DNA of 64,000 nucleotides from Bacilli bacterium (GCA_031549195.1 JAVBQF010000006.1:40091-104090); one strand, 5' to 3'. Shown: positions 145 to 23,604, counted from the first letter of the stretch. Made by a program: numbers and translations. Notes: generated by a model from the sequence alone, not told the origin.

Positions 145-3114
145 ATGGAAGAAGAAAATTTACAAGCAGCAGAAGAAAAAAGAAAAAAAGGAAGTATTGC
201 TTCTAGATATTATTCTCAGCACATGCAAAATAATAGAAATAGAGTTAATCAAGGTAAAAACGGAGGCAAAGATAGCTTAGCAGATGCTCTTGAAAGAAAC
301 AAAATGAAGATAAAAAGAGATGCATTTACAAATGCAATTTCTGCAGCAGCAGGACCAGCAGCGCCTCTTGCAAAAGCGGCATTATCTACGCCAAAAGGGC
401 AAGAAGTAATGGATGATTTGATAAGCAAGACGGAGAGTCCAGAAAAAGCCGGAGAAACATTTATACAAAAAATTAAGATTAAAAAGGAAATAATTATTAC
501 GGCAATCCCCATTGTATTAACGACAGTGGCTTCTTTCTTATTACCAATGCTTCTTATATTACTTCTAAAGAATGCAGATAGTATATTATTTAGTGAACAA
601 GGTGGTAATGTTGATAAAGTAATACAGGATAAAGAAGTAGATTCTGCAAAGGAAGTCTCTGTTTTTACTAAGACAGAAGATTTATATTTAAAGGTAAACC
701 AAGTAGCAAAAGACTATCATAATAAATATGGATTAGAAATTGATAGAGATTTAATAGTTGCTACATTAGTATCGCAACTTCAAAATGATGAGTATGCCTA
801 TAGTGAAAAAACAAAAAAAGATGAAAATGGTAATATAGATTGGGATTGGTATGTAGAAAAGAAGATGATACCACAAGTAGATTTGCTTGCAAAATATCAA
901 ATTATGGAAGTAATTGGTCAAGGATCAGGCTTATGCACATCTCAGTGGCAAGAAGATGGTATCGACATGGAAAAGGTAGCTTCTCATGATACAAAAGCAA
1001 GTGTAATAGACTTTTTTCTAGGTTGGATATTTTATAAGGAAGCTGTAAAAAACGAACGTAACATAAGATGTGTAGCAGCTCCATTTAATGGAGAGTCTGA
1101 TTCTGTTAGTGTAATATCTACAGAAGAAGGAACTTATTCAGTAAATCTAGTAGGGAATGAATTAGTTGAAACAAAAAGTCCTTATACTGGTGGGGTATAC
1201 TTTTGGAATTTGGTTGGGCCAAAAGGATTTATATTTGAATATTATAATGACTATCTAGCTATACCCATAAAGAATGGAGATAAAGAGGCCCAATATGAAG
1301 CAAATAAAGCGCAAATACTTGAAATAGCACACAGTATTTATACTTATAGAAGAGGTCTAATAAACCCAAACTACTGTGAAAACTATAGAATTTTAAAAGA
1401 TCCAGTTGAACCAGAAATAAACGTTCTTCCAAATGATGCCGGTCTATATGGTGGAATATATGATCTAGAAACATATGTTGCAGGAGTAATGTCAATAGAG
1501 TTTCCTCCACATTTAGCAGGTAATACAGAAGCATTAAAAGCATTTGCAATATTAGCAAGAACATATGGGCTTGAAGTGATGCGTAAAGAGGGAAGCATAA
1601 AAAATAGTTCTGAAAATCAAAACTTTCATCCTAATGGAATAAATAATAAACAAATAAAAGATGCTGTTGAGGCTACTAGAGGACTAGTTCTGACTGGTAG
1701 GCAGGATGATCTTTGGGATAAAGATACAGTTGATCAAATTTTAGAAGAAAATGATTGGAGCGATTCTAATAAGAAAAAAATATTCGAATATCAATATTAT
1801 TTATATAATATTTTTATGTCAGAATATGATTCATTTTGTCCAACAACTTCACAAGAAGAAAATGGAGGATATTACCAACTTACTGCCAATCAAAATGGAT
1901 TGAAAATAAGTTCAGATTGGGTAAACGGAATGGGACTTAATAAAAAAGCAATATGTCCATGTAAAGCAAAAGGCTATAATGAAATTCATGTTTCATATGC
2001 TCAAAATAATGAATGGATTCTTTTAAATGGTAGCACAGCTATGAATCCATTTCCACACTATATTAGTTCAGACCGTGATGGACGCCAAGAAGGTGGGTAT
2101 ATGATGTGTTGGCGTAACAAAGATAATGATGGCAATGTTGGTGCAAAAATCTGTCTAAAAAAGAAGTTGGTACCAAACGATTATGGTGAATATGATGTAG
2201 TTGAAGATTGTAATACTCCTTCTGATTATGAATATATATATAGCTATAAACCATCAGGTGGCCATGGTAGAGGGGCTAGTCAATGGGGATTAAGGTACTT
2301 CGCTGAAAAAGGTTATAAAATGGAAGAACTATTGAAGTTATTCTATGACAGAAAAGGATCTGCAAGTTCGAATCATCATGTTCAAATTATGAGACTTGAA
2401 AGTTCTTTGGTTAGTGGACTATGTGATGTTCCAAAGGATTTATTCCCAAATGCCACACTTTACTATAAAGGCGAGATAGCAGTAACTAATAAAAAGTCAG
2501 TTATTTTAAGAGAACCATTGGGTGAATTTTTAGATCAACATAAGGTTGAAGGAGAAAAAAAGAACGGATTAGATCTTTATAAAGAACTAATTGAATCAAA
2601 AGCTAATTTAGCAGGACTTGGAACTGGTGAAGCAGTTGCTCAAGTTGCTATTGCTATGATTTCTAGCTTGGATCAAACATATAAACTTAAAATACCAGTA
2701 TCATTTGATGGTGGTATGAAAGAAGAAGATGCCATAATAGATGGACAATGGGGATCTTCAATTCCATGTGGGCCTTACTCTTGTGTTAAAGGACTAAGTA
2801 ACAGCGGTTTTGTAAACACCGTTTTGACTTTGGCAGGATTTAAATACAAGAGTTACAAAGCTGACCAATGGAGTACTGTTGGATTAAAAAAAGATATTGA
2901 TACTTGTGATGCTAAAAGAGGAGACTTAATTTGGCATCAAGGTGCAGTTATGATAATTCTTGAAAAAGGTGAAGGAAATTCCTTTTATGTAGCAAATGCT
3001 AAAAGTATTGATACAGGTATCATTATAGAAGAGATTCAATGTAATAATAAAACTTTTGCAAAACCTAATTATATAATTGATATGTCAGATTATTATTCAA
3101 AGAACAAGAAATAA
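145..3114 (+). CDS. Membrane-anchored multidomain cell-wall hydrolase: SpoIID/LytB-type lytic transglycosylase domain plus a C-terminal NlpC/P60-like endopeptidase domain. Likely the peptidoglycan hydrolase of a conjugative element.
   Basis: ATG at 145 follows GGTGGTGAG; the ORF track begins at a TTG at 130. There is a TM helix at aa ~120-150 (IIITAIPIVLTTVASFLLPMLLILLL). A SpoIID signature is present (DLETYVAGVMSIEFPPHLAGNTEALKAFAILARTYGLEV ... GGHGRGASQWGLRYFAEKGYKMEELLKLFY). The C-terminal NlpC/P60-like motifs are SCVKGLSNSGFV (catalytic Cys), RGDLIWHQGAVMIIL (His) and FYVANAKS. It sits next to a lipoprotein gene and a VirD4-like ATPase gene. Confidence 0.6.
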   Translation: MEEENLQAAEEKRKKGSIASRYYSQHMQNNRNRVNQGKNGGKDSLADALERNKMKIKRDAFTNAISAAAGPAAPLAKAALSTPKGQEVMDDLISKTESPEKAGETFIQKIKIKKEIIITAIPIVLTTVASFLLPMLLILLLKNADSILFSEQGGNVDKVIQDKEVDSAKEVSVFTKTEDLYLKVNQVAKDYHNKYGLEIDRDLIVATLVSQLQNDEYAYSEKTKKDENGNIDWDWYVEKKMIPQVDLLAKYQIMEVIGQGSGLCTSQWQEDGIDMEKVASHDTKASVIDFFLGWIFYKEAVKNERNIRCVAAPFNGESDSVSVISTEEGTYSVNLVGNELVETKSPYTGGVYFWNLVGPKGFIFEYYNDYLAIPIKNGDKEAQYEANKAQILEIAHSIYTYRRGLINPNYCENYRILKDPVEPEINVLPNDAGLYGGIYDLETYVAGVMSIEFPPHLAGNTEALKAFAILARTYGLEVMRKEGSIKNSSENQNFHPNGINNKQIKDAVEATRGLVLTGRQDDLWDKDTVDQILEENDWSDSNKKKIFEYQYYLYNIFMSEYDSFCPTTSQEENGGYYQLTANQNGLKISSDWVNGMGLNKKAICPCKAKGYNEIHVSYAQNNEWILLNGSTAMNPFPHYISSDRDGRQEGGYMMCWRNKDNDGNVGAKICLKKKLVPNDYGEYDVVEDCNTPSDYEYIYSYKPSGGHGRGASQWGLRYFAEKGYKMEELLKLFYDRKGSASSNHHVQIMRLESSLVSGLCDVPKDLFPNATLYYKGEIAVTNKKSVILREPLGEFLDQHKVEGEKKNGLDLYKELIESKANLAGLGTGEAVAQVAIAMISSLDQTYKLKIPVSFDGGMKEEDAIIDGQWGSSIPCGPYSCVKGLSNSGFVNTVLTLAGFKYKSYKADQWSTVGLKKDIDTCDAKRGDLIWHQGAVMIILEKGEGNSFYVANAKSIDTGIIIEEIQCNNKTFAKPNYIIDMSDYYSKNKK

Positions 3115-3126
3115 CTAGGAGGAACT

Positions 3127-3864
3127 ATGACTAATATAAAAAAAACAATAGTGGCACTAATATTACTAGTTTTTCTTACTGGGTGTCAAGGTAGTTATAC
3201 ATTACATATAGACGAGAATACTTTTAAGGAAGAACTAACAGCAAGTGAGGATGATGCAGCTTATTTTGACTTTGTCGAAGAATATTCTGGATATTCAACA
3301 AGAGGTGCATTTGAACAGGCATACAATTCTAATACAACTTCTCTTTATGACTCGCAAACTTTTCCTGAGTTAGAAGAAAAGGTGGAAGGAATTCCATATT
3401 ATAATAAGAAGTATAATGCAACAGATAGTTTATTAGAATTGAAGTATAGTTATGCCTTTACTTATGATAATTATGCATCTTCTTCTATCATTCAAAAGTT
3501 CTTTCCTGAATTTACAATGACAGAACATGTTGGATATGTAGAATTGAATACTGGTGATACTTGTAATGTATTTTACTACTATCCTAAATTAAAAGAGATA
3601 AGGATAACTATAACAACAGATTTTAATGTAGGTTTAAATAATGCAACAAAGAAGGATGATAATAGTTATACTTGGCTAATATCGAAAGATACAATTAATA
3701 ACAGGACACTTACTAGAGCACTGTTTTTCAATTATGAAAAGGGTGTAATAGCAGCAAATATTAATTGGGTTTTATATATCATAATATTTGTCTTTGCACT
3801 TGCAATTATTGGAATAATTGCTATAATATTTGCTAGAAGCCATGAGAAAAAGATGAAAATATAA
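3127..3864 (+). CDS. Lipoprotein with a C-terminal TM anchor. Function unknown; possibly a T4SS or ICE accessory protein.
   Basis: Signal peptide with lipobox LTGC. The C-terminus is hydrophobic (VLYIIIFVFALAIIGIIAIIFA). RBS AGGAGG lies 7 nt upstream. It lies between the hydrolase and the coupling-protein genes on the same strand. Confidence 0.5.
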   Translation: MTNIKKTIVALILLVFLTGCQGSYTLHIDENTFKEELTASEDDAAYFDFVEEYSGYSTRGAFEQAYNSNTTSLYDSQTFPELEEKVEGIPYYNKKYNATDSLLELKYSYAFTYDNYASSSIIQKFFPEFTMTEHVGYVELNTGDTCNVFYYYPKLKEIRITITTDFNVGLNNATKKDDNSYTWLISKDTINNRTLTRALFFNYEKGVIAANINWVLYIIIFVFALAIIGIIAIIFARSHEKKMKI

Positions 3865-3880
3865 CTTAGGAGGTACAATA

Positions 3881-6361
3881 ATGAAATTTAAAGTAGTTGC
3901 TGAAGCAAGAGATATACTAATTTTTATAATATTCGCAATATTTCTTTTATATGTTGTAGCCCTAGGCGTATTAAACTTTCAAACTTTAGCTGCAACTGGG
4001 AGATTTTTTGGTATAAATCCAATCCCTGCATTCTCACCTGATAATCTAACATATACAATATTCTTTTATATATTTTCTTTAGCAGGCTTATTTATGAGTG
4101 TAAGTTCTTATTTCTTTGAAATGGAATCAGGCTTTGGAGTAAGTTCTTCAAAGAAAGAAAAAGGATATACTAGATGGGCAAAAGATAAGGAAATGTACAA
4201 AGAGTTAAAGTGTGTGCATCCAACAGATGAAAAATCAGAATATGCTGGCGTTCCTTTAATTAGTAATGGAAAAGAACTATGGGTAGATGATGGAGAGTTT
4301 CACAACTTAGTAATAGGAGCAACTGGATCTGGTAAAACACAAAGTACAATATTACCAGCAGTAAAAGTATTAGCTAAGAAAGGCGAGTCAATTATATGTA
4401 CTGACCCTAAGGGTGAAATATATGAAAAAACAGGCGGATTATTAAAAGCAAAGGGCTATAATATTATACTTTTAAACTTTCGTAATCCACAAAGGGGAAA
4501 CGCTTGGAATCCAATTACCTTACCTTACAGGCTTTATAAAAATGACAATAAGGATAAAGCAATAGAGTTATTAGATGACCTTGCTTTAAATATTCTATAT
4601 GAAGAAAATAGCGGTAATGCAGATCCGTTTTGGGAGAAAACATCAGCTGACTATTTTTCAGGATTAACACTTGGAATGTTTGAAGACACGACAGAAGACA
4701 AGATAAATATCAACAGTATTAGCTTAACTACTACAGTTGGTGAAGATAAATGTGGTGGATCAACATATGTAAAAGAATACTTTGGCTTGAAAGATCCTAA
4801 TAGTGCAGCATATATAAATGCAAGTGGTACTATTATGGCACCAAATGAAACAAAGGGAAGTATTATTGCTGTATTCAAACAAAAAATCAAATTATTTTCA
4901 TCTCGTGAGAACTTATCAGAAATGTTATCTTATAGTGATTTTGATATGGAAGATATAGGTAAGAAACCTACAGCAGTTTTCATTATTATTCAAGATGAAA
5001 AGAAGACATATCATTCACTTGCAACTATATTTGTTAAACAATGCTATGAGACGCTTATTGATGTAGCGCAACAAAATGGTGGAAAACTTCCTTGTAGAAC
5101 GAATTTTCTACTAGATGAGTTTGCTAATATGCCACCACTTAAAGATGTTACAACAATGATTACAGCAGCTCGTTCAAGACAAATAAGGTTTACACTTATT
5201 ATTCAGAACTTTGCACAGTTAACACAAGTATATGGTAAGGAAAATGCAGAGACTATAAAAGGTAACTGCGGTAACTTAATATATTTAATATCAACAGAGC
5301 TTGCAGCACTCGAAGAAATTAGTAAGTTATGCGGTGAAGTTAAATCTAAGAAAGATGATAAAACTGCATCAACACCACTAGTTACAGTAAGTGACTTGCA
5401 ACGTATGAAGCAGTTTGATCAAATAGTATTAAGAATGAGATCACATCCTTTTAAAACATCTTTTGTACCAGATTTTAAAATAAACTGGGGAAACACGAAA
5501 TATGAAAAAGTTGATTATCCAGAAAGAGAGAAAAAGCCTGTACAAGTATTTGACATTAGAGAATATGTAAAGGAAAAAAAGCAACAAAAGATAAAGGAAA
5601 TGATGGGAGAAGCGGGAAATGCAGCTCCAGGTGGAGCTATGCCTCCGTTTCCAGCACCTGCTCCAACACCAGTACAAGGAGCTTTTCCACCACCTGCAGC
5701 AGCACCTGCACCATATGGCGGGGAAGAGCTGATACCAGCACCACGTCCAATTATGCAACCTGTTACTGATTCAGTATCAACTACACCAAAGCCAGCACCA
5801 AAACCAATTCCAGACTTTGATGTTAATGACTTGGTTAAGAAGATAGATGCTAAGATTGCAGCAATGGAAGCTGAAGAGAAAAAGAACAAAGAAGAAGCTA
5901 AGGAACAACCTAAAGAAGTAGTAAAAGAAGAAATAATTGAAGAACCTAAATTGGAGCCGATTGCACCAAAGCCAATATATGAAAGTACAAATAATGGAAG
6001 AAGTGCACTATTGCCTTTAGAGGAACCTAGAAAAGAAATGTCAACACAACAAATTCCTTCAAATGATGTAGATGAATATAAACCACTTATATCATCAGGT
6101 GTAATAGAAAATAAGGTTAATAATATAATTGCTTCTAGATTATTAAGTACTGAAGAAGAAGTAAAACCACAGGCAATTGAAAAGGTGGAGCCAGTAGTAG
6201 AAATGGATAGACCGCCTATAGGAGATATAACAAGAGCATTAACTGCAGAACCAATTATTCCAACAGAGAATGCCTATGTTCCTAACAAGCCAACTCCAAC
6301 AATTAGATTAGAAGATGTTAAAGAAGATGATAAATTCTTCGATGATTTCTTTGAAGACTAA
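3881..6361 (+). CDS. Type IV secretion coupling protein (VirD4/TraG/TraD-like ATPase) with a ~300-aa Pro/Ala/Glu/Lys-rich C-terminal tail
   Basis: Two N-terminal TM helices. Walker A is VIGATGSGKTQS, the Walker B-like motif is FLLDEFANMPPL, and there is a TLIIQNFAQL motif. The Walker A to Walker B spacing is ~265 aa, as in VirD4-type T4CPs rather than FtsK-type. RBS is GGAGG. The low-complexity tail reads APGGAMPPFPAPAPTPVQGAFPPPAAAPAP...PKPAPKPIP. Confidence 0.6.
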   Translation: MKFKVVAEARDILIFIIFAIFLLYVVALGVLNFQTLAATGRFFGINPIPAFSPDNLTYTIFFYIFSLAGLFMSVSSYFFEMESGFGVSSSKKEKGYTRWAKDKEMYKELKCVHPTDEKSEYAGVPLISNGKELWVDDGEFHNLVIGATGSGKTQSTILPAVKVLAKKGESIICTDPKGEIYEKTGGLLKAKGYNIILLNFRNPQRGNAWNPITLPYRLYKNDNKDKAIELLDDLALNILYEENSGNADPFWEKTSADYFSGLTLGMFEDTTEDKININSISLTTTVGEDKCGGSTYVKEYFGLKDPNSAAYINASGTIMAPNETKGSIIAVFKQKIKLFSSRENLSEMLSYSDFDMEDIGKKPTAVFIIIQDEKKTYHSLATIFVKQCYETLIDVAQQNGGKLPCRTNFLLDEFANMPPLKDVTTMITAARSRQIRFTLIIQNFAQLTQVYGKENAETIKGNCGNLIYLISTELAALEEISKLCGEVKSKKDDKTASTPLVTVSDLQRMKQFDQIVLRMRSHPFKTSFVPDFKINWGNTKYEKVDYPEREKKPVQVFDIREYVKEKKQQKIKEMMGEAGNAAPGGAMPPFPAPAPTPVQGAFPPPAAAPAPYGGEELIPAPRPIMQPVTDSVSTTPKPAPKPIPDFDVNDLVKKIDAKIAAMEAEEKKNKEEAKEQPKEVVKEEIIEEPKLEPIAPKPIYESTNNGRSALLPLEEPRKEMSTQQIPSNDVDEYKPLISSGVIENKVNNIIASRLLSTEEEVKPQAIEKVEPVVEMDRPPIGDITRALTAEPIIPTENAYVPNKPTPTIRLEDVKEDDKFFDDFFED

Positions 6362-6388
6362 AAAGACTGTCATTAATTGACAGTTTTT
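6361..6388. terminator. Bidirectional terminator hairpin between the T4CP gene (+) and the activase gene (-)
   Basis: AAAAGACTGTCA-ttaat-TGACAGTTTTT: a 7-bp GC-containing stem flanked by an A-run and a T-run. Confidence 0.5.
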
Positions 6389-7335
6389 AAATTACTTAAA
6401 CCATTATCGCATTTATTACCCCATGCATCAAGAAGGCTATTATTACTTTTTACACAAATTATTTCACATCCGTTTGGACATTTATTACATTCAATACTTC
6501 TTGTTTCAAACTTAATATCTAGTACATCAAAGCTGAATAAGTTTTCTTTTTTTTCTTTTCTCGCTAAGATAGCAACACCTAAAGCCCCCATAAGATGCCC
6601 ATATTGAGATACCTTAACTGTTTCTCCTAAATATTTTTCAAATGCTTTTTGGACACCAATGTTCTTGCTTACACCACCTTGAAATATTATAGGAGCGGTT
6701 ATTTTTTTCCCCTTAGCAACATTATTCAAGTAATTTCTTACTATACTTTCACAAAGTCCTGCCACAATATCTTCCTTCTTATGTCCGGTACCTGCCTTAT
6801 GAACTAAATCTGATTCTGCAAACACAGTACATCTAGCAGCTATTTTAGTTGGATTTGTTGAGCTAAGAGCAATATTTCCAAATTCCTCAACGGGAATATT
6901 TAGTCTCCTAGCTTGACTTGACAAGAAAGCACCACATCCTGCTGCACATAATGTATTCATAGCATAGTCAGTAACAATACCATCTTCTATCAAAATGATC
7001 TTGGAGTCCTGCCCACCAATTTCTAATATTGTCTTAGTATCAGGATACATTGATAGTGTCCCTATCGCATGAGCAGTTATCTCATTTTTAACAGTATTAG
7101 CTTTAAGTATTGTGCCTATTAATCGTCTAGCACTTCCAGTAGTACCAACACTTACAATCTGATATAACTCTTGATTAAAGTTACTTTTCAATATTCTAAG
7201 TAGAGTAGTTATTGCAGTTATTGGACTGCCATTTGTTTCAATATAAGCTTCTGATAGAATATTATTGTATTCATCTATTATCACACCCTTTGTTGAAACT
7301 GAGCCGACATCAACCCCTAAGTAGCATTTATTCAT
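6373..7335 (-). CDS. CoA-substrate-specific enzyme activase (BadF/BadG/BcrA/BcrD-type ASKHA ATPase, HgdC-like) with a C-terminal Cys-rich segment
   Basis: The N-terminus MNKCYLGVDVGSVSTKGVIIDE is a typical acetate/sugar-kinase-fold phosphate-1 motif. The C-terminus is CNKCPNGCEIICVKSNNSLLDAWGNKCDNG. The start overlaps the upstream gene's stop (ATGAATAA), which indicates translational coupling. Confidence 0.6.
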   Translation of the reverse strand: MNKCYLGVDVGSVSTKGVIIDEYNNILSEAYIETNGSPITAITTLLRILKSNFNQELYQIVSVGTTGSARRLIGTILKANTVKNEITAHAIGTLSMYPDTKTILEIGGQDSKIILIEDGIVTDYAMNTLCAAGCGAFLSSQARRLNIPVEEFGNIALSSTNPTKIAARCTVFAESDLVHKAGTGHKKEDIVAGLCESIVRNYLNNVAKGKKITAPIIFQGGVSKNIGVQKAFEKYLGETVKVSQYGHLMGALGVAILARKEKKENLFSFDVLDIKFETRSIECNKCPNGCEIICVKSNNSLLDAWGNKCDNGLSNLKTVN

Positions 7336-8407
7336 CTTTTTTCTCCTTACTTAAAACTAACATGTCATGAAATGCTTCTAATCTAGTTTTAATACCTTCC
7401 ATACTTGTTTGATTATCAAATGAAAAGTATATAATTGGCATTCCTTCTTCTTTACATACTTTATCTATTATTGGTATAGCAGTAATCTCAGGAGTACACC
7501 CAAATGGTTTAATATGAATTATACCATCATAACCATCATCTATAAGCTTCTTAGCTCTATAAACATTATCAAGTCCATCTGCACCAATCTTATGCTTAAC
7601 ATAATCATTAACATATCTAAGCATTTTTTTACCTTCAAATCTCTTCTTTATAAGTAAATAAGTAACATTTGTGAACCTTTTTACTTCAATATTCATACTT
7701 GCTAACTCTTTTTCTAAAAAGTAACTAGCAAATGGTTCCATAGAAGTATATAATTCTCCAATAATACCAACTTTAATTCTATTTTCTTTCTTATTAACTG
7801 GAATTTCCTTAAACTTTTTCTTATACTTAAAATATAAATATGTCAATTTAGTAAATGTTCTGACTTTAGTAAAGTCATTATGCATCTCCTCTTTAATCTT
7901 TAAAAATTCCCCACTATTTACTTCGAAGCCAATATTTAATCTTATATAGTCATCCAACTTATCCATGTAATTAATCATTAAAAGAGTAAGTAGAGTATAA
8001 TATCCATATTTAAAGAAGTTTAAATCTTCATTTATACATTTGAACTTTTTATATAGAGTAATCGGCGTTAGAGAGTCACTATCTGTTAGTGCATAAAAAT
8101 CAAAATCATATCCTAAATCCTTCAATATTTTTTTTTGCACTTCAGCATAATATCCATAACGACATCCACCACCAGCTTGTATTAATGTATTAGCTCCCAT
8201 CTCTAAGCTTTCAATAAAATTACCAAGATTATATTTAAAGGGGATACATACAAAATCAGGTGCATATTTAGAACCGAGTTCGATAGTCTTTTTCGTAATT
8301 GGTGGAGTATTTAATATTTTCACTTTTAATATTTTACTAATTAAATAGCTAATTGGAATGGAGTAATCACCAAGATGTGGAAAAGCAATTATCTTTTCAT
8401 CATTCAT
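7328..8407 (-). CDS. 2-hydroxyacyl-CoA dehydratase-like or DUF2229-type protein (partner subunit of the activase)
   Basis: Family-level call based on the conserved activase plus two dehydratase-like subunit gene triad. The likely start is MNDEKII at 8407, with RBS GGGGG, and it overlaps the upstream gene's stop (TATGAATGA). The ORF track extends to 8458, which would overlap the upstream gene by 59 bp. Confidence 0.45.
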   Translation of the reverse strand: MNDEKIIAFPHLGDYSIPISYLISKILKVKILNTPPITKKTIELGSKYAPDFVCIPFKYNLGNFIESLEMGANTLIQAGGGCRYGYYAEVQKKILKDLGYDFDFYALTDSDSLTPITLYKKFKCINEDLNFFKYGYYTLLTLLMINYMDKLDDYIRLNIGFEVNSGEFLKIKEEMHNDFTKVRTFTKLTYLYFKYKKKFKEIPVNKKENRIKVGIIGELYTSMEPFASYFLEKELASMNIEVKRFTNVTYLLIKKRFEGKKMLRYVNDYVKHKIGADGLDNVYRAKKLIDDGYDGIIHIKPFGCTPEITAIPIIDKVCKEEGMPIIYFSFDNQTSMEGIKTRLEAFHDMLVLSKEKKDE

Positions 8408-9326
8408 AAAAATTACCCCCATTTCTCTTTTCTTTAATAACATCAATAAAACTTTCAAGTCTCGTAATCATACCAGTATCATTATTAAGCTCATCTACAA
8501 TAACTTGAATTGTTGGGATATCTAAACTCCTTATAATTAATTCATTCGTCAAAGAATCTGGTCCGCAAGGAAAAGAAGTAACTAATATTATTCCATCAAT
8601 CTTATCTTTATAATGAGTAATTGCTCCAAGAAGTTCTCTATTAAAAGTCCAGTAGTTAGAGTAACTTATCTCATTACATTCATAATCTAATTTATCTTTA
8701 TTATAAATATCACTATATATAACATTTATATCCTTTTTCTCAAAATAACTTGAAATAGTAGTGCCTATAAATTCATCATACAAATTGTAAGGATGGCCAG
8801 CTAAAAGAATTTTAATGTTTTGCCCATCAAGTAATAAATTTTGCTTGATAATTCTCTTTTTTTCTATTTCTTCACTGTACTTTTTAGCTCTAATATAAGC
8901 TTTAATTACTTTTATTTTGTTTAATTTTAGTATTCTTCCAATATCAAAAAAAGCATCAGCTTCTTCTTGGTTATTATCGATATCAACATTAAACTTTAGT
9001 ATTCTTATATCGTCAAATAGGTTAAATGTTAAATCATATAAAGCCATGAAGTTAGTACACATCTTTTCGTTTTTCTTAATACTGGATAAGCGAGTGATTA
9101 AGATATAATCACATTTGTTTTTTAAATTTTCAACATGTCCAACAAATATTTTGAGCGCAAGGCAAGATTCATCTATAGTCTTTTTAATACCTTCGTCTAA
9201 TATTTGTTTGTTTGTCTTGTCACTTACTACAATATCAATATTTAATTCTTCAAAGAACTTGCTCCACATGTTAATATAACGATAGTAAAGTAGTCCTCTT
9301 GGTATTCCAATTTTTAGTTTATTCAA
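8400..9326 (-). CDS. 2-hydroxyacyl-CoA dehydratase-like or DUF2229-type protein (first gene of the triad)
   Basis: It is co-oriented with the two downstream genes and its stop overlaps their start. Composition and length fit the uncharacterised dehydratase-like partners of CoA activases. Confidence 0.45.
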   Translation of the reverse strand: MNKLKIGIPRGLLYYRYINMWSKFFEELNIDIVVSDKTNKQILDEGIKKTIDESCLALKIFVGHVENLKNKCDYILITRLSSIKKNEKMCTNFMALYDLTFNLFDDIRILKFNVDIDNNQEEADAFFDIGRILKLNKIKVIKAYIRAKKYSEEIEKKRIIKQNLLLDGQNIKILLAGHPYNLYDEFIGTTISSYFEKKDINVIYSDIYNKDKLDYECNEISYSNYWTFNRELLGAITHYKDKIDGIILVTSFPCGPDSLTNELIIRSLDIPTIQVIVDELNNDTGMITRLESFIDVIKEKRNGGNFYE

Positions 9327-9443: not shown

Positions 9444-10073
9444 ATGAAAAAGAAGTTATTGATATTATTAATGATATTTTTGATACCATTTAATGTATCT
9501 GCAATTACTGTTGGAACAAGTGTTGATACAGTTGTTTTAAGTAAGTGTGTCGATGGGGACACAGCAAGGTTTATGCTTAACAACGAAGAAATAAAAGTAA
9601 GATTTTTAGCTATTGATACTCCTGAATCTGTGCATCCAACTAAAGAAGTTGAAGTATATGGGAAGGATGCATCTGAATATACTTGTAAGGTATTAAGTGA
9701 TGCTGAAAAGATAGAACTTGAATACGATCCAAATAGTAACAAACAAGATAAATATGGAAGATACTTGGCTTGGATATTTGTTGATGATGTGTTACTTCAA
9801 GATACTTTAGTTAAAGTTGGATACGCTAAAGTGGCATATTTATATGGTGACTATTTATATACTGAAACACTAAAAGAAAGTGAAAAGTTAGCTAAGAAAG
9901 AAATGCTTGGTATCTGGAATGAGGTAGTAGTAGAGGAAGTCAATACAGAAACCAAAGCAGAAGAAAAAGAAGAAAAAAAATTTAGTTTATTAGACTTAAT
10001 TCTTGATTTCTTAAATGAAATTTTGGAGAAATTCATTGAGTTTATAGATAATCTAATTGAAGATATGTTATAA
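9444..10073 (+). CDS. Secreted thermonuclease (staphylococcal nuclease, SNase-fold) with an unusual acidic/amphipathic C-terminal tail
   Basis: Signal peptide MKKKLLILLMIFLIPFNVSA. The core DGDTARF...RFLAIDTPE...YGKDASEYT...DKYGRYLAWIFVDD...LVKVGYAKVAYLY aligns motif by motif with the S. aureus nuclease active-site regions. Confidence 0.85.
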   Translation: MKKKLLILLMIFLIPFNVSAITVGTSVDTVVLSKCVDGDTARFMLNNEEIKVRFLAIDTPESVHPTKEVEVYGKDASEYTCKVLSDAEKIELEYDPNSNKQDKYGRYLAWIFVDDVLLQDTLVKVGYAKVAYLYGDYLYTETLKESEKLAKKEMLGIWNEVVVEEVNTETKAEEKEEKKFSLLDLILDFLNEILEKFIEFIDNLIEDML

Positions 10074-10092
10074 TTTATATATGGAGGAAATT

Positions 10093-10569
10093 ATGAAGAT
10101 AAATGATAAAGTAAAAAATATAATAATAGTAGTATTAGTTTTGTTAATAGTATTCGGTGGTTCTTTTTTTGCATCAGAACTAAGACAACCTGATGAAGAA
10201 GTAACTACAGAATACTCAGTATATAATGAATTAACACTTAATGGATATTTAGATCTTGTTAAAAGTGATAAATTAACAGTTATCTATGTTGGTAATGAAA
10301 CTTGCGTAGCTTGCGCAACATTTGATCCAATATTAAAACCAATTGTTGAAGAAAATAACATAGTTATATATCATTTGAATTTGGCAAGAGTAAAAACACA
10401 GACAGATGCGAATAAGGTATATGAAAGTTATGATGATTTCAAAGAAAATGGAATTAATACACCAACATTATTAATAGTAAAAGGTGGCAAAGTCATTGCA
10501 GCACAAGTAGGTGCTAAAACAACTGATGTCACTACAGAATTTTTTAAAACTAATAACATTATAAAGTAG
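10093..10569 (+). CDS. Membrane-anchored thioredoxin-like protein (CxxC = CVAC)
   Basis: N-terminal TM (IIIVVLVLLIVFGGSFFA). The thioredoxin-fold context is LTVIYVGNETCVACATFDPIL. The start is placed at the ATG after GGAGG at 10093; the track starts at 10057. Confidence 0.5.
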   Translation: MKINDKVKNIIIVVLVLLIVFGGSFFASELRQPDEEVTTEYSVYNELTLNGYLDLVKSDKLTVIYVGNETCVACATFDPILKPIVEENNIVIYHLNLARVKTQTDANKVYESYDDFKENGINTPTLLIVKGGKVIAAQVGAKTTDVTTEFFKTNNIIK

Positions 10570-10577
10570 GTGAATAT

Positions 10578-11012
10578 ATGAGAATATTATCTCAAGCAAA
10601 AAAATTTGTACAAAAATATCCTCTTACTATTGCTTGGAGAATTAAGCAAAATAGCAGTATTGTAGAAAAATATATTAATCCCGATGAAAAGCCAATATAT
10701 GTTTTTACTGGTCAAATGAGCGAAAGCAGTCTTGATATATTTAGTACTGCCATAGTGGTACTTACAGACAAAAGAATTATAATAGGAAGAAAAAGAGTGA
10801 TATTTGGGTATTTTTTTTACTCAATAATGCCTCAAATGTTCAATGATTTAAATGTAAAAGCTAATTTGATATGGGGTAAAGTATATATCGATACAGTCAA
10901 AGAGTTAGTTACTATATCAAATATTGATAAAAAGGCTTTAGATGAAATAGAAACAAATATTAGCACTTATATGATGAATTTAAAAAAAGAGTATCCAAGT
11001 AAAGAAGAGTAG
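10578..11012 (+). CDS. Hypothetical protein, possibly bacterial PH-domain-like
   Basis: RBS AGGTGA. No diagnostic motif. Size and hydrophobic pattern resemble bPH-domain proteins, which often sit beside membrane proteins. Confidence 0.3.
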   Translation: MRILSQAKKFVQKYPLTIAWRIKQNSSIVEKYINPDEKPIYVFTGQMSESSLDIFSTAIVVLTDKRIIIGRKRVIFGYFFYSIMPQMFNDLNVKANLIWGKVYIDTVKELVTISNIDKKALDEIETNISTYMMNLKKEYPSKEE

Positions 11013-11084
11013 AATAGGATAGTTCTAATAAATAATAGTATTTATTAGAATTTTTTTTATGATATAATGAAAATAGGTGATAAT

Positions 11085-12308
11085 ATGAAAAGGGTAATTG
11101 GCTTTATTGTAGGAATCATTATATTTTATTTTATATTTCAAATATCTGTCACATTCTTTAAAACTTCGCACAATGTAGAATATATAAAGGAAATTGATGA
11201 TAAAAAATTTATAATTAATGAGATATATTCAAAAAATAATTCTGGTAATTATTATTCAATCAACATTAAAATAGATGATAAAGAATTTATTTTTTATGTT
11301 GGTAATAGTTTTAATAAACAAAAAAATATAGTTAAAGACATTAAATATTATCAAAAAGATAATCTTTTCTGTGTGTATCCAGTATACATAAAAGATAAAG
11401 TAGGAGAGGACCTTATTTGTGATATAGATGGTAATTTATATTCGTATACTAGCATTTATGATAAATATGATTTAAAAGATTTTGCAAGTGAATTGCCTAA
11501 CTTTGTTTATAACAAAAAAACGGTATCAACAACAAAAGAAAAAATAGCAGATGTCTATACATACAATGAAAATATTGAAGAAAATGAATATGTAATTATA
11601 TATAATTACAAGACTCTTTTAAAGGTTAGTCAAATTATGAATACGGAAATAGATTTCTCTTCATATGATGTTTATCAAAATATATATGGTACATTAGTCG
11701 ATAAGTATTATATTTTACCAATATCAGTTAATAAGTCACCTTACTTATCATTTAATATTATTGATATATTAAGTGCTGATTCAAAAGTTTTGAATATGAA
11801 TCAATCTACATCTACTAGTTTTTATGTAAATGGAGCAGTAGATAACAAACTGTATTTCTTTGACAAAATAGATTTAAAACAATATATGATTTCTCCTAAA
11901 GATCAGGATTATGAATTAATTGGTGATAGTGAACTAGGTGGGAAAGTCTACGAGAACGGGATTTGGAAAGATGTAAGTATATATGACTTGAAAAATAATA
12001 CTATATTTACCGAAGATTTTAGTAAATTAGCAAAATTTAATTACAAAGAGGCATTTAAATCAAATAGATACTATTATTTCTATGATGAAAAAAGTAATTT
12101 TTATAGAGTTCATCAAGATTATAAAGAAAGCCCCGTATTACTCTTTAATAAGAAGAACTTAAAAGAAATAAAAGTTGTAGATGATAATATATATTATATA
12201 ATTGATACAACTCTTTATAGATTTAATGAAAGTGGTGAAATTCCAATAGCAGAAAGACCAGAATTTAAGTATAATTCTACAAATATTTATAGTGTCTATA
12301 TCAAGTAG
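11085..12308 (+). CDS. Membrane-anchored hypothetical protein: N-terminal TM plus a large extracytoplasmic Tyr/Asn/Lys-rich domain
   Basis: TM is VIGFIVGIIIFYFIFQI. The start is the second ATG after AGGTGA. No recognisable catalytic motif. Confidence 0.4.
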   Translation: MKRVIGFIVGIIIFYFIFQISVTFFKTSHNVEYIKEIDDKKFIINEIYSKNNSGNYYSINIKIDDKEFIFYVGNSFNKQKNIVKDIKYYQKDNLFCVYPVYIKDKVGEDLICDIDGNLYSYTSIYDKYDLKDFASELPNFVYNKKTVSTTKEKIADVYTYNENIEENEYVIIYNYKTLLKVSQIMNTEIDFSSYDVYQNIYGTLVDKYYILPISVNKSPYLSFNIIDILSADSKVLNMNQSTSTSFYVNGAVDNKLYFFDKIDLKQYMISPKDQDYELIGDSELGGKVYENGIWKDVSIYDLKNNTIFTEDFSKLAKFNYKEAFKSNRYYYFYDEKSNFYRVHQDYKESPVLLFNKKNLKEIKVVDDNIYYIIDTTLYRFNESGEIPIAERPEFKYNSTNIYSVYIK

Positions 12309-12400
12309 ACACTTTTATTTTAAAAGTAACAAATTTGGACTTTTTCTTTTACTAATATTAATGTATACTATATGTAAGAATAAGATAGGGAGTGAATAAT

Positions 12401-14041
12401 GTGATACTTAGAAAACCATATGCTTTTTTAATTAAAAATTTTAAATTATTGCATTTATTTTTATCTTTATTTTTGGGATTTGTATTATATAAAACCTATA
12501 ATTTATTAGGTTTCTTTTCTGAACTAATAAAAGGTATTAAAAACTATGGACCATTTGATAATTTAAGCTCTATTTATATTGGTGCACTTACATATATAGC
12601 AATTATTTTAGCAATGACATTTGCAATAATAGTAATATTGTTATTAAGAGTTAAAAAGAAACCCACACTTTATTATTATTCTTTAACAGCTGTATATGTT
12701 GTCGTAATATTAGTTTTGCTTTATGCATCGTCAATTTTATCTAATATTCAATTTCAAACTTATGATACAAGAACACTTAAGTTGGCCCATGATATTATTT
12801 TAGCAGCACTTGCAACACAAATTTTCTTTTTAATAGTAGCAACACTTCGCGCAGTTGGCTTAAATTTAGGTAAGAAATTTAATTTTAAAAAAGACTTAGC
12901 AGAACTAGATATTGAAGCAAGCGACAATGAGGAATTTGAACTTAACTTAAATTTGGATACTGAAGAAGTAAAATCAAATCTTAGAAAAAGACTAAGAATG
13001 TTTAAATATATATATAAAGAGAACAAGGCAGTATTTTTAAGTCTTATTGGTATTTTGGCTATTATATTAATTGTGTTTATTGCTAATATAATTATGAGCA
13101 TTGAAAAGATTTATAAAGAAGATCAGATGTTTAGAAGTAAGTCTTTTGAGATAACAGTACTTGATAGTTATGTAACTGATAAAGATTATAATGGAAAAGA
13201 GATTAGCAATAAATATAGTTATGTTATTTTGAAAATAAAGTTTAAAAATGTTTCTAATATAACTCAAGATATTATTATAGATAACACAAGAGTTAGGGTA
13301 GAAAAATATATCACATATAAATCAACTAAAGCAGAATATGATAATTTTATAGAGTTTGGAGTTCCTTATTATAGTCAAAGGCTTAAAGCAGAGGAAACAA
13401 GAGAGTTTATATTTGTATATGAGATAGAAAAGAAGTATGCTGAAAATAGTATGAAGTTTGAATATTTAGTGGATATAAACAGCTCTAATAGTGAAGTTAA
13501 ATATGACTATACTAAAGTTGCAATAAAGCCAGATGATTTTTCTAAAAAGGAGACTAAAGCAACAGCATATTTAGGTGAAAAAGTAACATTTACTGATAGC
13601 CTATTATCAAATGCATCTCTAACTATAAACAGTATTGAGCTTAAAGATAAATATCAATATACATATACTTCTTGCATAGAAAATAAGTGTAGTAATTATT
13701 CTAAATATATAGAACCTTCTTTAAAGTCAGAGTATGACCTAACTATTATGAGAGTTAACTATAATTTAGATATGAGTAAAAATGTTGATAGGAGCTTTAA
13801 TATAAGTAAATTTATTGAAAAGTTTGGGACTGTTAGATATGTAATTAATGGTAAGGAATATTTAAATAGAATGGGTATGACTGATGTTACACCTATAATA
13901 CTTCCTAATGATACATATTTAGAAATAACAACAAGATTAAAACAAGCAGAGAAGGTCTATTTGGATATAACTATAAGAGATAAAGTATATACTTATATTA
14001 TTAAGGATACTACAAAGGTAGAAGAAAAAGCTGAGGAATAA
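12401..14041 (+). CDS. Polytopic membrane protein: ~5 N-terminal TM helices plus a large C-terminal extracytoplasmic domain. Function unknown.
   Basis: Hydrophobic helices at aa 20-230. A GTG start at 12401 with AGGGAG upstream is plausible; the track starts at 12392. The C-terminal domain is predicted beta-rich and has no known motif. Confidence 0.4.
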   Translation: MILRKPYAFLIKNFKLLHLFLSLFLGFVLYKTYNLLGFFSELIKGIKNYGPFDNLSSIYIGALTYIAIILAMTFAIIVILLLRVKKKPTLYYYSLTAVYVVVILVLLYASSILSNIQFQTYDTRTLKLAHDIILAALATQIFFLIVATLRAVGLNLGKKFNFKKDLAELDIEASDNEEFELNLNLDTEEVKSNLRKRLRMFKYIYKENKAVFLSLIGILAIILIVFIANIIMSIEKIYKEDQMFRSKSFEITVLDSYVTDKDYNGKEISNKYSYVILKIKFKNVSNITQDIIIDNTRVRVEKYITYKSTKAEYDNFIEFGVPYYSQRLKAEETREFIFVYEIEKKYAENSMKFEYLVDINSSNSEVKYDYTKVAIKPDDFSKKETKATAYLGEKVTFTDSLLSNASLTINSIELKDKYQYTYTSCIENKCSNYSKYIEPSLKSEYDLTIMRVNYNLDMSKNVDRSFNISKFIEKFGTVRYVINGKEYLNRMGMTDVTPIILPNDTYLEITTRLKQAEKVYLDITIRDKVYTYIIKDTTKVEEKAEE

Positions 14042-14133: not shown

Positions 14134-14207
14134 GGGTCCATAGCCAAGTGGTAAGGCGTGGGACTGCAACTCCCTGATCGTTGGTTCAAATCCGACTGGG
14201 CCCTCCA
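14134..14207 (+). tRNA. tRNA-Cys (anticodon GCA) with encoded CCA
   Basis: Manual cloverleaf: acceptor GGGTCCA pairs with TGGGCCC, with a G-U wobble at pair 4. The D-arm is GCC/GGC. The anticodon loop is CTGCAAC, giving GCA. The T-arm is GTTGG-TTCAAAT-CCGAC, followed by discriminator T and CCA. Confidence 0.8.
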
Positions 14208-14293: not shown

Positions 14294-14841
14294 ATGACAT
14301 TAGAAACAGAAAGACTAATTTTGAGAGAATGGGAAGAAAAAGATATCAATGATTTAATTGAAGGATTAAATAATATTGAAGTATCTAAATGGTTAGCGTT
14401 TGTTCCTTATCCTTACACAGAAAAAGATGCTAAAAGTTGGATTGATTATTGTTTAGAAAATTCTAAAAAAGAAAACAAAACTGCATATGAATTTGCTATT
14501 GTGTTGAAGGTAGAAAATAAAGTGATTGGTGGAACTAGCTTAGATAAAGTTAATAAGTCACAAGGAACTGCTGGTGGAGGTATTTGGATAAATGCAAAAT
14601 ATCATGGAAAAGGATAAGGTAGTGAAGCGTTTGGAAAAAGAATAGAATTTGCTTTTGATAAATTAAATTTAAGAAGGATAGATAATGGTTTCTTTGTTGG
14701 AAATGAATCATCATTTAAAATGCAAGAAAGATTTGGTTATAAAATTGAAGATTTAAAGAGGCAAGCATATATTTGTCGAGCAGATGGTAAAATAAAAGAT
14801 GAACAGTTAACAGGTTTGTTAAAAGAAGAGTGGAAAAGATA
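14294..14841 (+). pseudogene. GNAT (RimL/RimJ-like) N-acetyltransferase disrupted by an in-frame TAA and an apparent 1-nt frameshift near the 3' end
   Basis: The N-terminal part 14294-14617 ends at TAA exactly where motif A reads GKG-Y-GSEA (observed GKG*GSEA). The same frame continues with conserved GNAT C-terminal sequence (RIEFAFDKLNLRRIDNGFFVGNESSFKMQERFGYKIEDLKRQ). The canonical ending LLKEEWKR* appears only after a -1 shift in the A-run at ~14819-14822. Without the shift, the frame runs on into the intergenic repeat. Confidence 0.55.
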
Positions 14842-14844
14842 AAT

Positions 14845-22328: not shown

Positions 22329-23507
22329 TTATTTGTTGTTGTATAAGATGTTTATATCGACGGCCCCACTAACACCATTTATTCTCCCAATATTACTTAA
22401 TTGCCACATTACATAATCACCTTGATATGTTGTTTCCTTTGTATAATGAGCAAGCCATACTGGATGGTTATTTTTGTTAGTCCAAATATTTTCTAGATAA
22501 TTTTTACTACTGTAAAGCATACCTTGATATCCACCTTTATTAATTGCATCAATAAACTTTTCCGCTATATTATTGATATCGTAAAAGCTTAAATTAAAAT
22601 TATTCCATTGAGACCAACTTTCCCAGTCAAATACCACTGGTAAATCTAATTTAGTACCATTTAACTTTTCAAGTACCCAATTAGCATGTTTGACACTCTC
22701 TTCAGCACTAGTTGCAATACTATATAAATAAACGCCTACTTTTAATCCAGCTTTCTTCGCATTTTCAATATTCTTTAAATAATATGAATCTATCTCTAGT
22801 TCACCGTTTGCAACCTTTTGAACACCAATTCTCATCATTGCAAAAGTAGCCCCAGCTTCCTTTACCTTGTTAAAGTCTATACTAGTTTGCCATCTTGATA
22901 CATCGATACCAATTTCATTATCAACTGTTTTATACTTATTTATTACATCTTGAAAGTATAATTTTTCAGTACTCGTTGAGGAGCTATTATTAATCTTCTT
23001 TACGACATTTAATGTAATATTGAAAGTAGAGTAGTTGTTACTACTATCAGTAACTGTATATTCTAAAGGATAACTTCCAACTTTAGAAATATCATAACTA
23101 CCTTTAATTGTACATAATGCCTTTTTATCATAATTATCTCCAAACATAATCAAGTTACACAAATCCCCAGTGTGGTTTAATTCTACTGTTTTATTAACAC
23201 CACTAAATATTCGTGGGGCTTCTTTATCAACAATATTTACATCAAACTTATAAACATATTTATTCTTATCTACTTTATAGTATATTTCTTGTTTTATAAT
23301 ACCAGTTTTGTTTGTATTGATTAGAATATTATCACTAACCATTTCTCCGTTTGTAATAGTTACTATATCTTTTAGGTAAATATTGCTATACACTTCAACA
23401 GTAGACTTTGCACGTATTGTTACGGTTTTTGGTATTTCAGTATAAATCTTTTCTTTACAGCCACACATTAATAGACAAAATATAAATAGCAGAAAAAACT
23501 TTTTCAT
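22329..23507 (-). CDS. GH25 muramidase (lysozyme) with an N-terminal signal/lipoprotein peptide and an Ig-like spacer domain
   Basis: GH25 core: GIDVSRWQTSIDFNKVKEAGATFAMMRIGVQ ... DSYYLKNIENAKKAGLKVGVYLYS ... LPVVFDWESW. The N-terminus is MKKFFLLFIFCLLMCGC. Confidence 0.6.
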   Translation of the reverse strand: MKKFFLLFIFCLLMCGCKEKIYTEIPKTVTIRAKSTVEVYSNIYLKDIVTITNGEMVSDNILINTNKTGIIKQEIYYKVDKNKYVYKFDVNIVDKEAPRIFSGVNKTVELNHTGDLCNLIMFGDNYDKKALCTIKGSYDISKVGSYPLEYTVTDSSNNYSTFNITLNVVKKINNSSSTSTEKLYFQDVINKYKTVDNEIGIDVSRWQTSIDFNKVKEAGATFAMMRIGVQKVANGELEIDSYYLKNIENAKKAGLKVGVYLYSIATSAEESVKHANWVLEKLNGTKLDLPVVFDWESWSQWNNFNLSFYDINNIAEKFIDAINKGGYQGMLYSSKNYLENIWTNKNNHPVWLAHYTKETTYQGDYVMWQLSNIGRINGVSGAVDINILYNNK

Positions 23508-23604
23508 AATTATCACCTTACATTAATTATAACAGTATCACTAAAATTTTAATACTAATTTATATTATACGATGTGATATAATTATTTATATGGAGGATC
23601 TAAT

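Follow-up and report, generated by a model that had tools for sequence, protein, structure and literature searches.

Does a protein that joins a SpoIID-type domain to a domain of NlpC/P60 descent open the cell wall for a type IV secretion system (T4SS), and would it do so with one activity or with two? The question is raised by the gene at positions 145..3114 (+ strand) of a 64,000-nucleotide stretch of DNA from a Bacilli bacterium (GCA_031549195.1 JAVBQF010000006.1:40091-104090), which is referred to here at its full length as the window. Gram-positive conjugation systems have to breach a thick wall, for which the enzymes described so far pair a lysozyme- or SLT-type domain with a peptidase. 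An earlier note on this DNA had read the gene product as a membrane-anchored wall hydrolase of the conjugation type, in which a SpoIID-type lytic transglycosylase takes the place of SLT and is fused to NlpC/P60. We put the probability at roughly 70% that the gene encodes the peptidoglycan-opening subunit of a Gram-positive T4SS or conjugation system in uncultured low-GC gut Bacilli, equipped with a SpoIID-type cutter and a dead NlpC/P60 domain. The membrane-anchored protein of the earlier note is retained as a peptidoglycan-remodelling protein in a Gram-positive T4SS cluster. The basis for this reading is provided by the domain identities, the residue states, the membrane anchor, the gene neighbourhood and the family-wide swapping of modules, as established here.

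The gene forms one long open reading frame (ORF) on the + strand at 130/145-3114, in agreement with the extent given for it previously. The start at 145 is accepted because a ribosome-binding site, GGTGGTGAG, stands at the right spacing before the ATG, 5 nucleotides upstream. Translation from this ATG yields 989 residues, and the GC content of the window is ~29%. Based on the ORF list, the ribosome-binding site and the domain architecture, the product is a single-pass membrane protein and the likely wall-remodelling subunit of the T4SS cluster. Across the whole protein, 19-residue Kyte-Doolittle windows exceed 1.6 only at starts 114-132, and the sole transmembrane helix accordingly covers residues ~116-141 (490..567, +), followed by a conserved KNADS motif that reads FKNADSxIFS in the family. 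The tail ahead of the helix (residues 1-115; 145..489, +) is Lys/Asn-rich and poorly conserved, with 18% identity to the relative P0003 and no hydrophobic window ahead of residue 114. Since residues ~116-141 are the only hydrophobic segment, the cytoplasmic tail has a length of about 115 residues. The single helix had been foreseen correctly, but the cytoplasmic N-terminus had been taken to be only ~45 residues long. An N-in orientation is suggested by the KIKIKK cluster just ahead of the helix together with the positive-inside rule. The helix would anchor the protein with about 115 residues in the cytoplasm and about 850 residues outside, the latter folding into an orphan alpha/beta domain, a SpoIID-type domain and an NlpC/P60-derived domain.

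The SpoIID-type lytic transglycosylase domain spans residues 423-745 (1411..2379, +) and is recognized by Pfam, PDB alignments and Foldseek. The Pfam model PF08486 (SpoIID) has a cut-off of 23 bits and scores 45.2 bits over residues 440-517. In a direct sequence search of the PDB, both ends of the domain align to SpoIID of Clostridioides difficile (5i1t, 5txu). A profile of the 14 closest relatives matches SpoIID of both Bacillus anthracis and C. difficile (4rwr, 5i1t, 5txu) with E-values from 1.7e-13 to 9e-12. The AlphaFold2 (AF2) model of residues 420-989 has a mean predicted local distance difference test score (pLDDT) of 82.6, and its top Foldseek matches are 5i1t (E 5.4e-8) and 4rwr (E 2.4e-6) at a probability of 1.00, with a target-normalised TM-score to 5i1t of 0.45. 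The two SpoIID/LytB signatures originally noticed in the sequence, EALKAFAILARTYGL at residues 462-476 and GGHGRGASQWG at residues 705-715, both fall inside the region that passes PF08486 and aligns to 5i1t, 5txu and 4rwr. Pfam score, motifs and fold place the protein in the SpoIID/LytB domain family; it is not a sporulation SpoIID.

The active site can be located by reference to C. difficile SpoIID, in which the catalytic Glu is E101 and the zinc ligands are H134, C140, H145 and C146 (PMC6221140). In the chain of 5i1t, residues H110, C116, H121 and C122 map to these ligands with an offset of +24, and because the offset was checked on all four, E77 of the chain equals E101. The residue of the window protein that aligns with E101 is E452 (in YVAGVMSIEF; codon 1498-1500), which is conserved in at least 90% of the close family. 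The catalytic Glu, the loss of which had been named in advance as evidence against a SpoIID domain, is hence kept, and it is not the Glu of the EALKA motif (EALKAFAILARTY, E462). The ARTY motif is present as ILARTY at residues 468-473, and its Arg (R472) is invariant in the close family, as are G706, H707, G708, G710, S712 and Q713. A YD(S/A)FCP motif stands at residues 561-566. A zinc site of the C. difficile type was considered and rejected, as the segment with H134, C140, H145 and C146 has no counterpart. Four other Cys of the domain (565, 604, 606 and 655) are invariant in the family. Lineage-specific inserts at residues ~520-560 and ~610-700 are modelled with low confidence. Pfam scans of the protein and Foldseek searches of the orphan domain detected no SLT or lysozyme domain anywhere in the protein, and Pfam gave no glucosaminidase-type match either. 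With the SpoIID active-site signature intact, lytic transglycosylase activity is predicted from sequence to be the only catalysis of the protein.

The C-terminal domain (residues 791-989; 2515..3111, +) appears to consist of a helical N-subdomain and a papain-like core, and its descent from NlpC/P60 is apparent only at the level of the family. The descent proposed in the earlier note stands on the evidence of relatives, but not on the profile score of the protein itself. PF00877 (NlpC/P60) is matched by 24 of 30 aligned homologous domains, whereas the window protein scores 15.9-17.6 bits, under the cut-off of 23. CHAP is matched by 8 of the 30, Amidase_6 by 3 and Amidase_5 by 1. The profile of the 30 domains matches solved NlpC/P60 proteins, namely CwlO, RipA, Spr and the Tn916-like CTn7-Orf16 (9ubf) and CTn1-Orf17 (4hpe). 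The C-terminus of the window protein alone found no match among PDB sequences. Foldseek with the multi-domain model as query matches MepS/Spr at a probability of 0.87-0.96 and E-values of 0.1-0.3, and block-mean pLDDT is 76-97 across the domain and 92-97 for most of the core.

The triad of this domain is degenerate. The family motifs GLDCSGF and GHIMLIVG align with the Cys and His that are catalytic in solved NlpC/P60 proteins. At the Cys position (G-x-D-C-S-G-F) the window protein reads GLSNSGF and has Asn886 (codon AAC, 2800-2802), and at the His position (G-H-[IV]-x-[IL]) it reads QGAVMII and has Ala934 (codon GCA, 2944-2946). The absence of these two residues, which the earlier note had itself named as speaking against its reading, is what the alignments reveal. 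The third triad position is N951 (codon 2995-2997), where relatives carry E, H, Q or D and P0003 carries T. Asn as a third triad residue is possibly tolerated in papain-like enzymes, which is moot once Cys and His are gone. Both Cys and His are present in 88 of 95 aligned domains, and both are absent only in the window protein (P0001) and in P0003. A further protein, P0057, is without the Cys only, and in three long relatives an insert breaks the alignment at the His position, which was therefore left unscored.

P0003 is the nearest relative at 46% identity and stems from an independent ENA metagenome assembly. Asn886 and Ala934 are common to both assemblies. Because the codons AAC and GCA each require two nucleotide substitutions from Cys and His codons, the replacements are not sequencing slips. 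Constraint was judged by amino-acid identity per domain, since at the 46% identity of the only close relative saturation of synonymous sites is to be expected. Between P0001 and P0003, the C-terminal domain is 50% identical without gaps, compared to 48-55% for the SpoIID core and 44% for the orphan domain. Because the dead domain is conserved as well as the SpoIID core, we regard it as a pseudo-enzyme that descends from NlpC/P60 and has been retained, and advise against classifying it as an NlpC/P60 peptidase. Pfam scans found no other peptidase domain in the protein.

Between the membrane and the SpoIID domain lies a domain (residues 167-422; 643..1410, +) for which the AF2 model and the family alignment indicate a mixed alpha/beta fold. 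A stretch of ~250 residues without assigned function had been noticed at this place before, and it indeed has no neighbour in Pfam, PDB or BFVD. None of 23 family members has a Pfam match in the domain, the family profile has no sequence match in the PDB, and a Foldseek search of the model against PDB and BFVD returned no match at E <= 0.001, with best query-normalised TM-scores of at most 0.19. The model itself is confident (pLDDT 84, predicted template modelling score 0.85). Invariant residues in the family alignment include D200, Q252, D282, E304, N306, C309, the GGVYFWNL motif and C411. The motifs IDxxLIxATL, LLAKxQI and GGVYFWNL have a loose likeness to SLT motifs, which prompted a check for a hidden lysozyme. 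A divergent SLT or lysozyme domain was rejected, given a confident model with neither a lysozyme-like nor any other significant PDB or BFVD neighbour and no Pfam or PDB sequence match. Residues 167-422 are hence, as modelled, a real and conserved domain with an orphan fold in the libraries searched. It could serve to dock the protein to the T4SS, bind the wall in a new way or act as a new enzyme, and D200, Q252, D282, E304, N306 and C309 would fit any of these.

The composition of the wider family shows which parts of the protein are constant. At E <= 0.001, an exhaustive HMMER search recovered 267 representative proteins, and the last ~200 residues are common to many of them. A full-length word-indexed search found only the query itself and one relative, and such a search with just the C-terminal 239 residues did not retrieve even the query, so that the family becomes visible by exhaustive search. 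In dozens of 50%-identity representatives, SpoIID is combined with an NlpC/P60-type C-terminal domain, and these proteins occupy the same T4SS operon position wherever the context is visible (including the locus L019). The same chassis of transmembrane helix and orphan domain carries other sets of modules as well. These are M23 with phage lysozyme and no SpoIID (P0081), SpoIID with M23 and tail lysozyme (P0070), SpoIID with glucosaminidase (P0089), SpoIID with CHAP (P0046, P0122) and SpoIID with canonical NlpC/P60 (P0035). SpoIID-only members have a length of about 720-760 residues (P0002, P0007, P0009-11). Because one chassis carries different module sets, the orphan domain stays constant while the wall-cutting modules can be exchanged. 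Among the glycan modules of the family, SpoIID occurs most often, sometimes beside a lysozyme-type module rather than in its stead. The idea that SpoIID takes the place of SLT thus holds for the window protein, in which no SLT or lysozyme was found, but not across the family, where relatives combine SpoIID with lysozyme or glucosaminidase. Likewise, an analogous but evolutionarily distinct solution to wall opening is recognizable at the level of the family, as module sets on one chassis, whereas the claim of two activities fails for the window protein with its N886 and A934.

The enzymatic activity, the substrate, the role of the dead domain and the role in DNA transfer are predictions from these features. 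In the mechanism we propose, the SpoIID domain would make local cuts in the glycan strands and thereby let the channel pass through the wall. The orphan domain, as the constant module of the family, might provide docking to the T4SS or the wall. The C-terminal domain, having exchanged Cys for Asn886 and His for Ala934, would no longer cleave stem peptides and would be kept under constraint, possibly to bind stem peptides or the wall or to act as a protein-interaction module.

The gene neighbourhood points to a T4SS. Scanning one genome per species identified 17 loci with a clear orthologue, mostly in uncultured Bacilli, Erysipelotrichaceae or Clostridium sp., many from gut or rumen and one on a closed 1.31-Mb chromosome. 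The conserved order runs from a VirB6-like gene (TrbL_4) over a small ORF, a split VirB4, the hydrolase, a lipoprotein and a coupling protein (T4CP) to SNase, a thioredoxin-like (Trx-like) protein, a bacterial PH-domain (bPH) protein, a ~410-residue protein, a ~550-residue protein and tRNA-Cys. In relatives, the TrbL_4/VirB6-like, TraC-like and VirB4 genes stand directly upstream of the hydrolase, and the VirB6-like protein has weak matches to membrane-protein families of conjugation in a Mycoplasma integrative and conjugative element (ICE) and in pLS20. The VirB4 ATPase of relatives is encoded by two overlapping or adjacent ORFs, one of ~183 residues (TraC-like, CagE_TrbE_VirB N-domain) and one of ~600 residues with the P-loop. 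This arrangement, seen at L001 7384-9715 and L025 5636-7971, points to a conserved split or to a programmed frameshift. A tblastn search against plasmids returned no match.

Directly downstream of the hydrolase in the window, a gene at 3127..3864 (+) encodes a 245-residue protein that, from its sequence, is a predicted lipoprotein with the lipobox LTGC and a C-terminal transmembrane helix. It has no Pfam or NCBIfam match. Homologues follow the hydrolase directly in 15 loci and in L024-L027, hence in every related locus with a visible next gene, and the lipoprotein is probably a dedicated partner of the hydrolase. Two genes downstream of the hydrolase, at 3881..6361 (+), lies a VirD4/TraG-type T4CP (PF02534, 1.4e-60; also TraG-D_C and TrwB) with a Pro/Ala/Glu-rich C-terminal tail. 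Its C-terminal third (5400-6361) is a low-complexity tail of ~300 residues rich in Pro, Ala, Glu and Lys, in which spurious antisense ORFs appear (5441-5889). Three genes on the reverse strand (6373-9326), assigned by Pfam and NCBIfam to a BcrAD/BadFG-family ATPase, an HGD-D-like protein and a DUF2229 protein, split the T4CP from the SNase gene. Because T4CP and SNase adjoin in all related loci, the three genes are a window-specific insertion into the T4SS cluster.

The remainder of the cluster, all on the + strand, was assigned by Pfam and NCBIfam and comprises an SNase nuclease (9444-10073), a secreted thioredoxin-like protein (10057-10569) with weak matches to the disulfide isomerase PedC/BrcD and to F-plasmid TrbB, and a bacterial PH-domain protein (10578-11012). 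The thioredoxin-like protein might oxidise invariant Cys in the extracellular domains of the hydrolase (C309, C411, C565, C604, C606, C655 and C760). C565, C604, C606 and C655 may form a metal site or disulfides, and with this gene in the cluster, disulfides are plausible. Two membrane proteins without a family match follow, one of 413 residues (11067-12308) and one of 549 residues with several N-terminal hydrophobic segments (12392-14041). Both are 29-45% identical across loci and are candidates for missing T4SS or DNA-processing functions. The block from SNase to these membrane proteins is found in the same order in 13-15 related loci. The conserved cluster ends with a tRNA-Cys (GCA) at 14134..14207 (+), predicted by ARAGORN. 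In 10 of 15 related loci (including L001, L005, L009, L012, L013 and L015-L018), tRNA-Cys follows the last cluster gene at a spacing of about 70-120 nucleotides. The tRNA-Cys may be the attachment site of an ICE or a fixed landmark of a vertically inherited chromosomal cluster. Just after it, at 14294-14842, a GNAT-like ORF of 107 residues and then an ORF of 40 residues resemble an interrupted acetyltransferase gene and would be consistent with a junction or a recombination scar. Past the first 14 kb, ordinary chromosomal genes follow, among them asnA, ftsA, ftsZ, ftsK and dnaE. This chromosomal part of the window also contains a GH25 muramidase with an Ig-like domain (22329-23516, - strand) and a C39-peptidase ABC exporter of the bacteriocin-export type (25849-27930).

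Several systems from Gram-positive bacteria are suitable for comparison. CwlT of ICEBs1 from Bacillus subtilis, Orf14 of Tn916 and CTn1-Orf17 and CTn7-Orf16 of C. difficile are likewise membrane- or wall-associated peptidoglycan hydrolases encoded in a T4SS operon beside VirB4 and T4CP. The shared C-terminal NlpC/P60 descent is reflected in the matches of the family profile to CTn7-Orf16 and CTn1-Orf17. CwlT, which we take to combine a lysozyme-like muramidase with NlpC/P60, and its group differ from the window protein in three ways: the window protein has a SpoIID-type glycan module instead of a lysozyme-like muramidase, its NlpC/P60 domain is without Cys and His, and it carries the 250-residue orphan domain in addition. 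PrgK of pCF10 and TraG of pIP501 combine SLT with CHAP, and PrgK has LytM in addition. They too are modular, membrane-anchored, multi-domain wall hydrolases of conjugation systems, and a PrgK-like pair of M23 and lysozyme occurs on the family's own chassis in P0081. The window protein differs from both in having neither SLT nor an active peptidase. The design logic of the family, with interchangeable wall-cutting modules, is nonetheless the same as in PrgK, TraG and CwlT.

With SpoIID of Bacillus and Clostridioides (4rwr, 5i1t, 5txu), the window protein shares the fold, the position of the catalytic Glu and the ARTY and GHGxGxSQxG motifs. It differs in missing the zinc motif of C. difficile, in having four invariant Cys elsewhere and large inserts, and in its multi-domain T4SS context. 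SpoIID-like domains have been mentioned, in one sentence, in polyvalent proteins of phages and conjugative elements, where they are thought to breach peptidoglycan (Iyer et al. 2017, PMC5512222). Polyvalent proteins are cytoplasmically delivered and contain many domains, whereas the window protein is a membrane-anchored subunit encoded in a T4SS operon, and PMC5512222 describes neither a pairing with NlpC/P60 nor a role as T4SS hydrolase for the polyvalent SpoIID-like domains. Apart from that sentence, full-text literature searches found no paper linking SpoIID to conjugation or to T4SS hydrolases. The window protein has the T4SS-operon placement and the N-terminal anchor of the VirB1-analogue class, the orientation of the anchor being deduced from the Lys cluster, and it is without two usual features of the class, a lysozyme or SLT domain and an active peptidase. 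By analogy, it may be a functional counterpart of VirB1, CwlT or PrgK.

A number of points weigh against a SpoIID-type wall opener of a conjugation system. The SpoIID/LytB domain model TIGR02669 of NCBIfam scores 65.4 bits, under its cut-off of 83.3, and in the SpoIID domain ~170 residues belong to lineage-specific inserts for which the model has low confidence. The window does not reach the upstream half of the cluster, so that the VirB4 and VirB6 context is taken from relatives. Pfam and NCBIfam scans of the cluster recognized no relaxase or integrase in any locus, and conjugation is for this reason deduced from T4SS genes alone. Sporulation SpoIID cuts only glycan that has already been stripped of peptides by the amidase SpoIIP (PMC6221140), and no amidase was found within the protein, among the downstream cluster genes of the window, or over 10 kb upstream in L001. 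An intact NlpC/P60- or CHAP-like domain in relatives might, speculatively, supply the peptide-stripping step, which is not possible in the window protein. Finally, the conservation of the T4CP (52-77% identity) and the constant position of tRNA-Cys could indicate a fixed chromosomal system with another function.

This last point leads to the alternative that survives best, a possibility to which we give clearly less than even odds. The cluster could be a vertically inherited, domesticated T4SS of a reduced-genome lineage, serving for instance DNA release or uptake or contact-dependent exchange, and not a mobile element. The hydrolase would still be the wall-remodelling subunit, so that the biological role would change and the molecular mechanism would not. 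Consistent with domestication, the gene order is identical in at least 15 species-level metagenome-assembled genomes (MAGs), the same tRNA-Cys neighbour recurs, scans of the cluster detected neither relaxase nor integrase, and the cluster is situated among the core genes ftsA, ftsZ, ftsK and dnaE. Between loci (L001-L019), the T4CP is 52-77% identical over the best-aligned segment, compared to 27-32% for the hydrolase and 23-31% for the lipoprotein. The gap between hydrolase and T4CP also indicates that the exposed wall-remodelling protein evolves fast. However, the same picture would arise from an ICE family that always targets tRNA-Cys, and the sequence past tRNA-Cys differs between the window and L001. 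The matches of the VirB6-like protein to ICE and plasmid families speak for mobility too, and the two conserved cluster proteins that have so far no assigned function could supply the missing relaxase or replication functions. A more far-reaching combination seems rather unlikely to be correct in all its parts. The transmembrane helix and the orphan 250-residue domain would form the chassis of an undescribed T4SS wall-remodelling family in gut Bacilli, with a new fold that has its own function. SpoIID would be the default glycan cutter, the cluster a domesticated chromosomal T4SS and the dead NlpC/P60 domain a converted peptidoglycan-recognition module.

It is improbable, though worth weighing, that the protein as a whole lacks catalysis and serves as a scaffold or enhancer that recruits a host autolysin to the T4SS site in the manner of LytB. 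LytB presumably carries a SpoIID-like domain, as the name of the SpoIID/LytB model TIGR02669 also implies. A passage in PMC7176660 has B. subtilis LytB enhancing the amidase LytC. Such a scaffold is kept in consideration because SpoIID needs amidase-stripped glycan (PMC6221140) and none of the cluster genes seen provides an amidase. One enzymatic domain is moreover already dead, so that the lineage tolerates a loss of catalysis. Against a scaffold stands the preservation of E452, of the Arg of ARTY, of the YD motif and of the GHGxGxSQ motif, all of which are kept. The SpoIID-type cutter with a dead partner domain remains the preferred reading.

A hydrolase with two activities, in which SpoIID cuts glycan and NlpC/P60 cuts stem peptides as in CwlT, TraG and PrgK, is very improbable. 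The domain order is that of bifunctional T4SS hydrolases, the C-terminal domain is well folded in the AF2 model, and 88 of the 95 aligned domains do have the Cys/His pair. Yet in the window protein the pair is replaced by Asn886 and Ala934, and the Pfam NlpC/P60 score is under the cut-off. Ser885, Ser887 and His931 stand near the old active site. As an alternative set including a nucleophile, S885, S887 and H931 were judged unlikely because H931 is not kept in P0003, which reads WEENALS there. That the gene encodes a sporulation SpoIID, an engulfment hydrolase merely located beside T4SS-like genes, can be dismissed: SpoIID is the only Pfam match above threshold, but the sporulation equivalog model TIGR02870 reaches 45.1 bits against a cut-off of 234.75, the protein has 989 residues and carries two additional extracellular domains, its gene stands in conserved synteny with those of VirB4, VirB6 and T4CP, and neither spoIIP nor spoIIM was seen near the hydrolase gene in the window.

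The advance is incremental, as module shuffling is common among wall hydrolases, and current understanding is not overturned. The locus nonetheless provides several openings. The confidently modelled orphan domain without a structural neighbour is on offer for structural work, and the conserved genes constitute a marker set for a T4SS that occurs widely among gut MAGs. A natural pair of dead and active domains, bearing on the origin of pseudo-enzymes among wall hydrolases, is formed by the window protein and its relatives P0004 and P0005, which have intact Cys and His in the NlpC/P60-type domain. With the peptidase-derived domain dead, the question is raised of what supplies peptide-stripped glycan here. 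To our knowledge, SpoIID is otherwise known mainly from spore engulfment. The sequences analysed here suggest that a family in uncultured gut Bacilli may use the SpoIID fold to open the wall for a T4SS.

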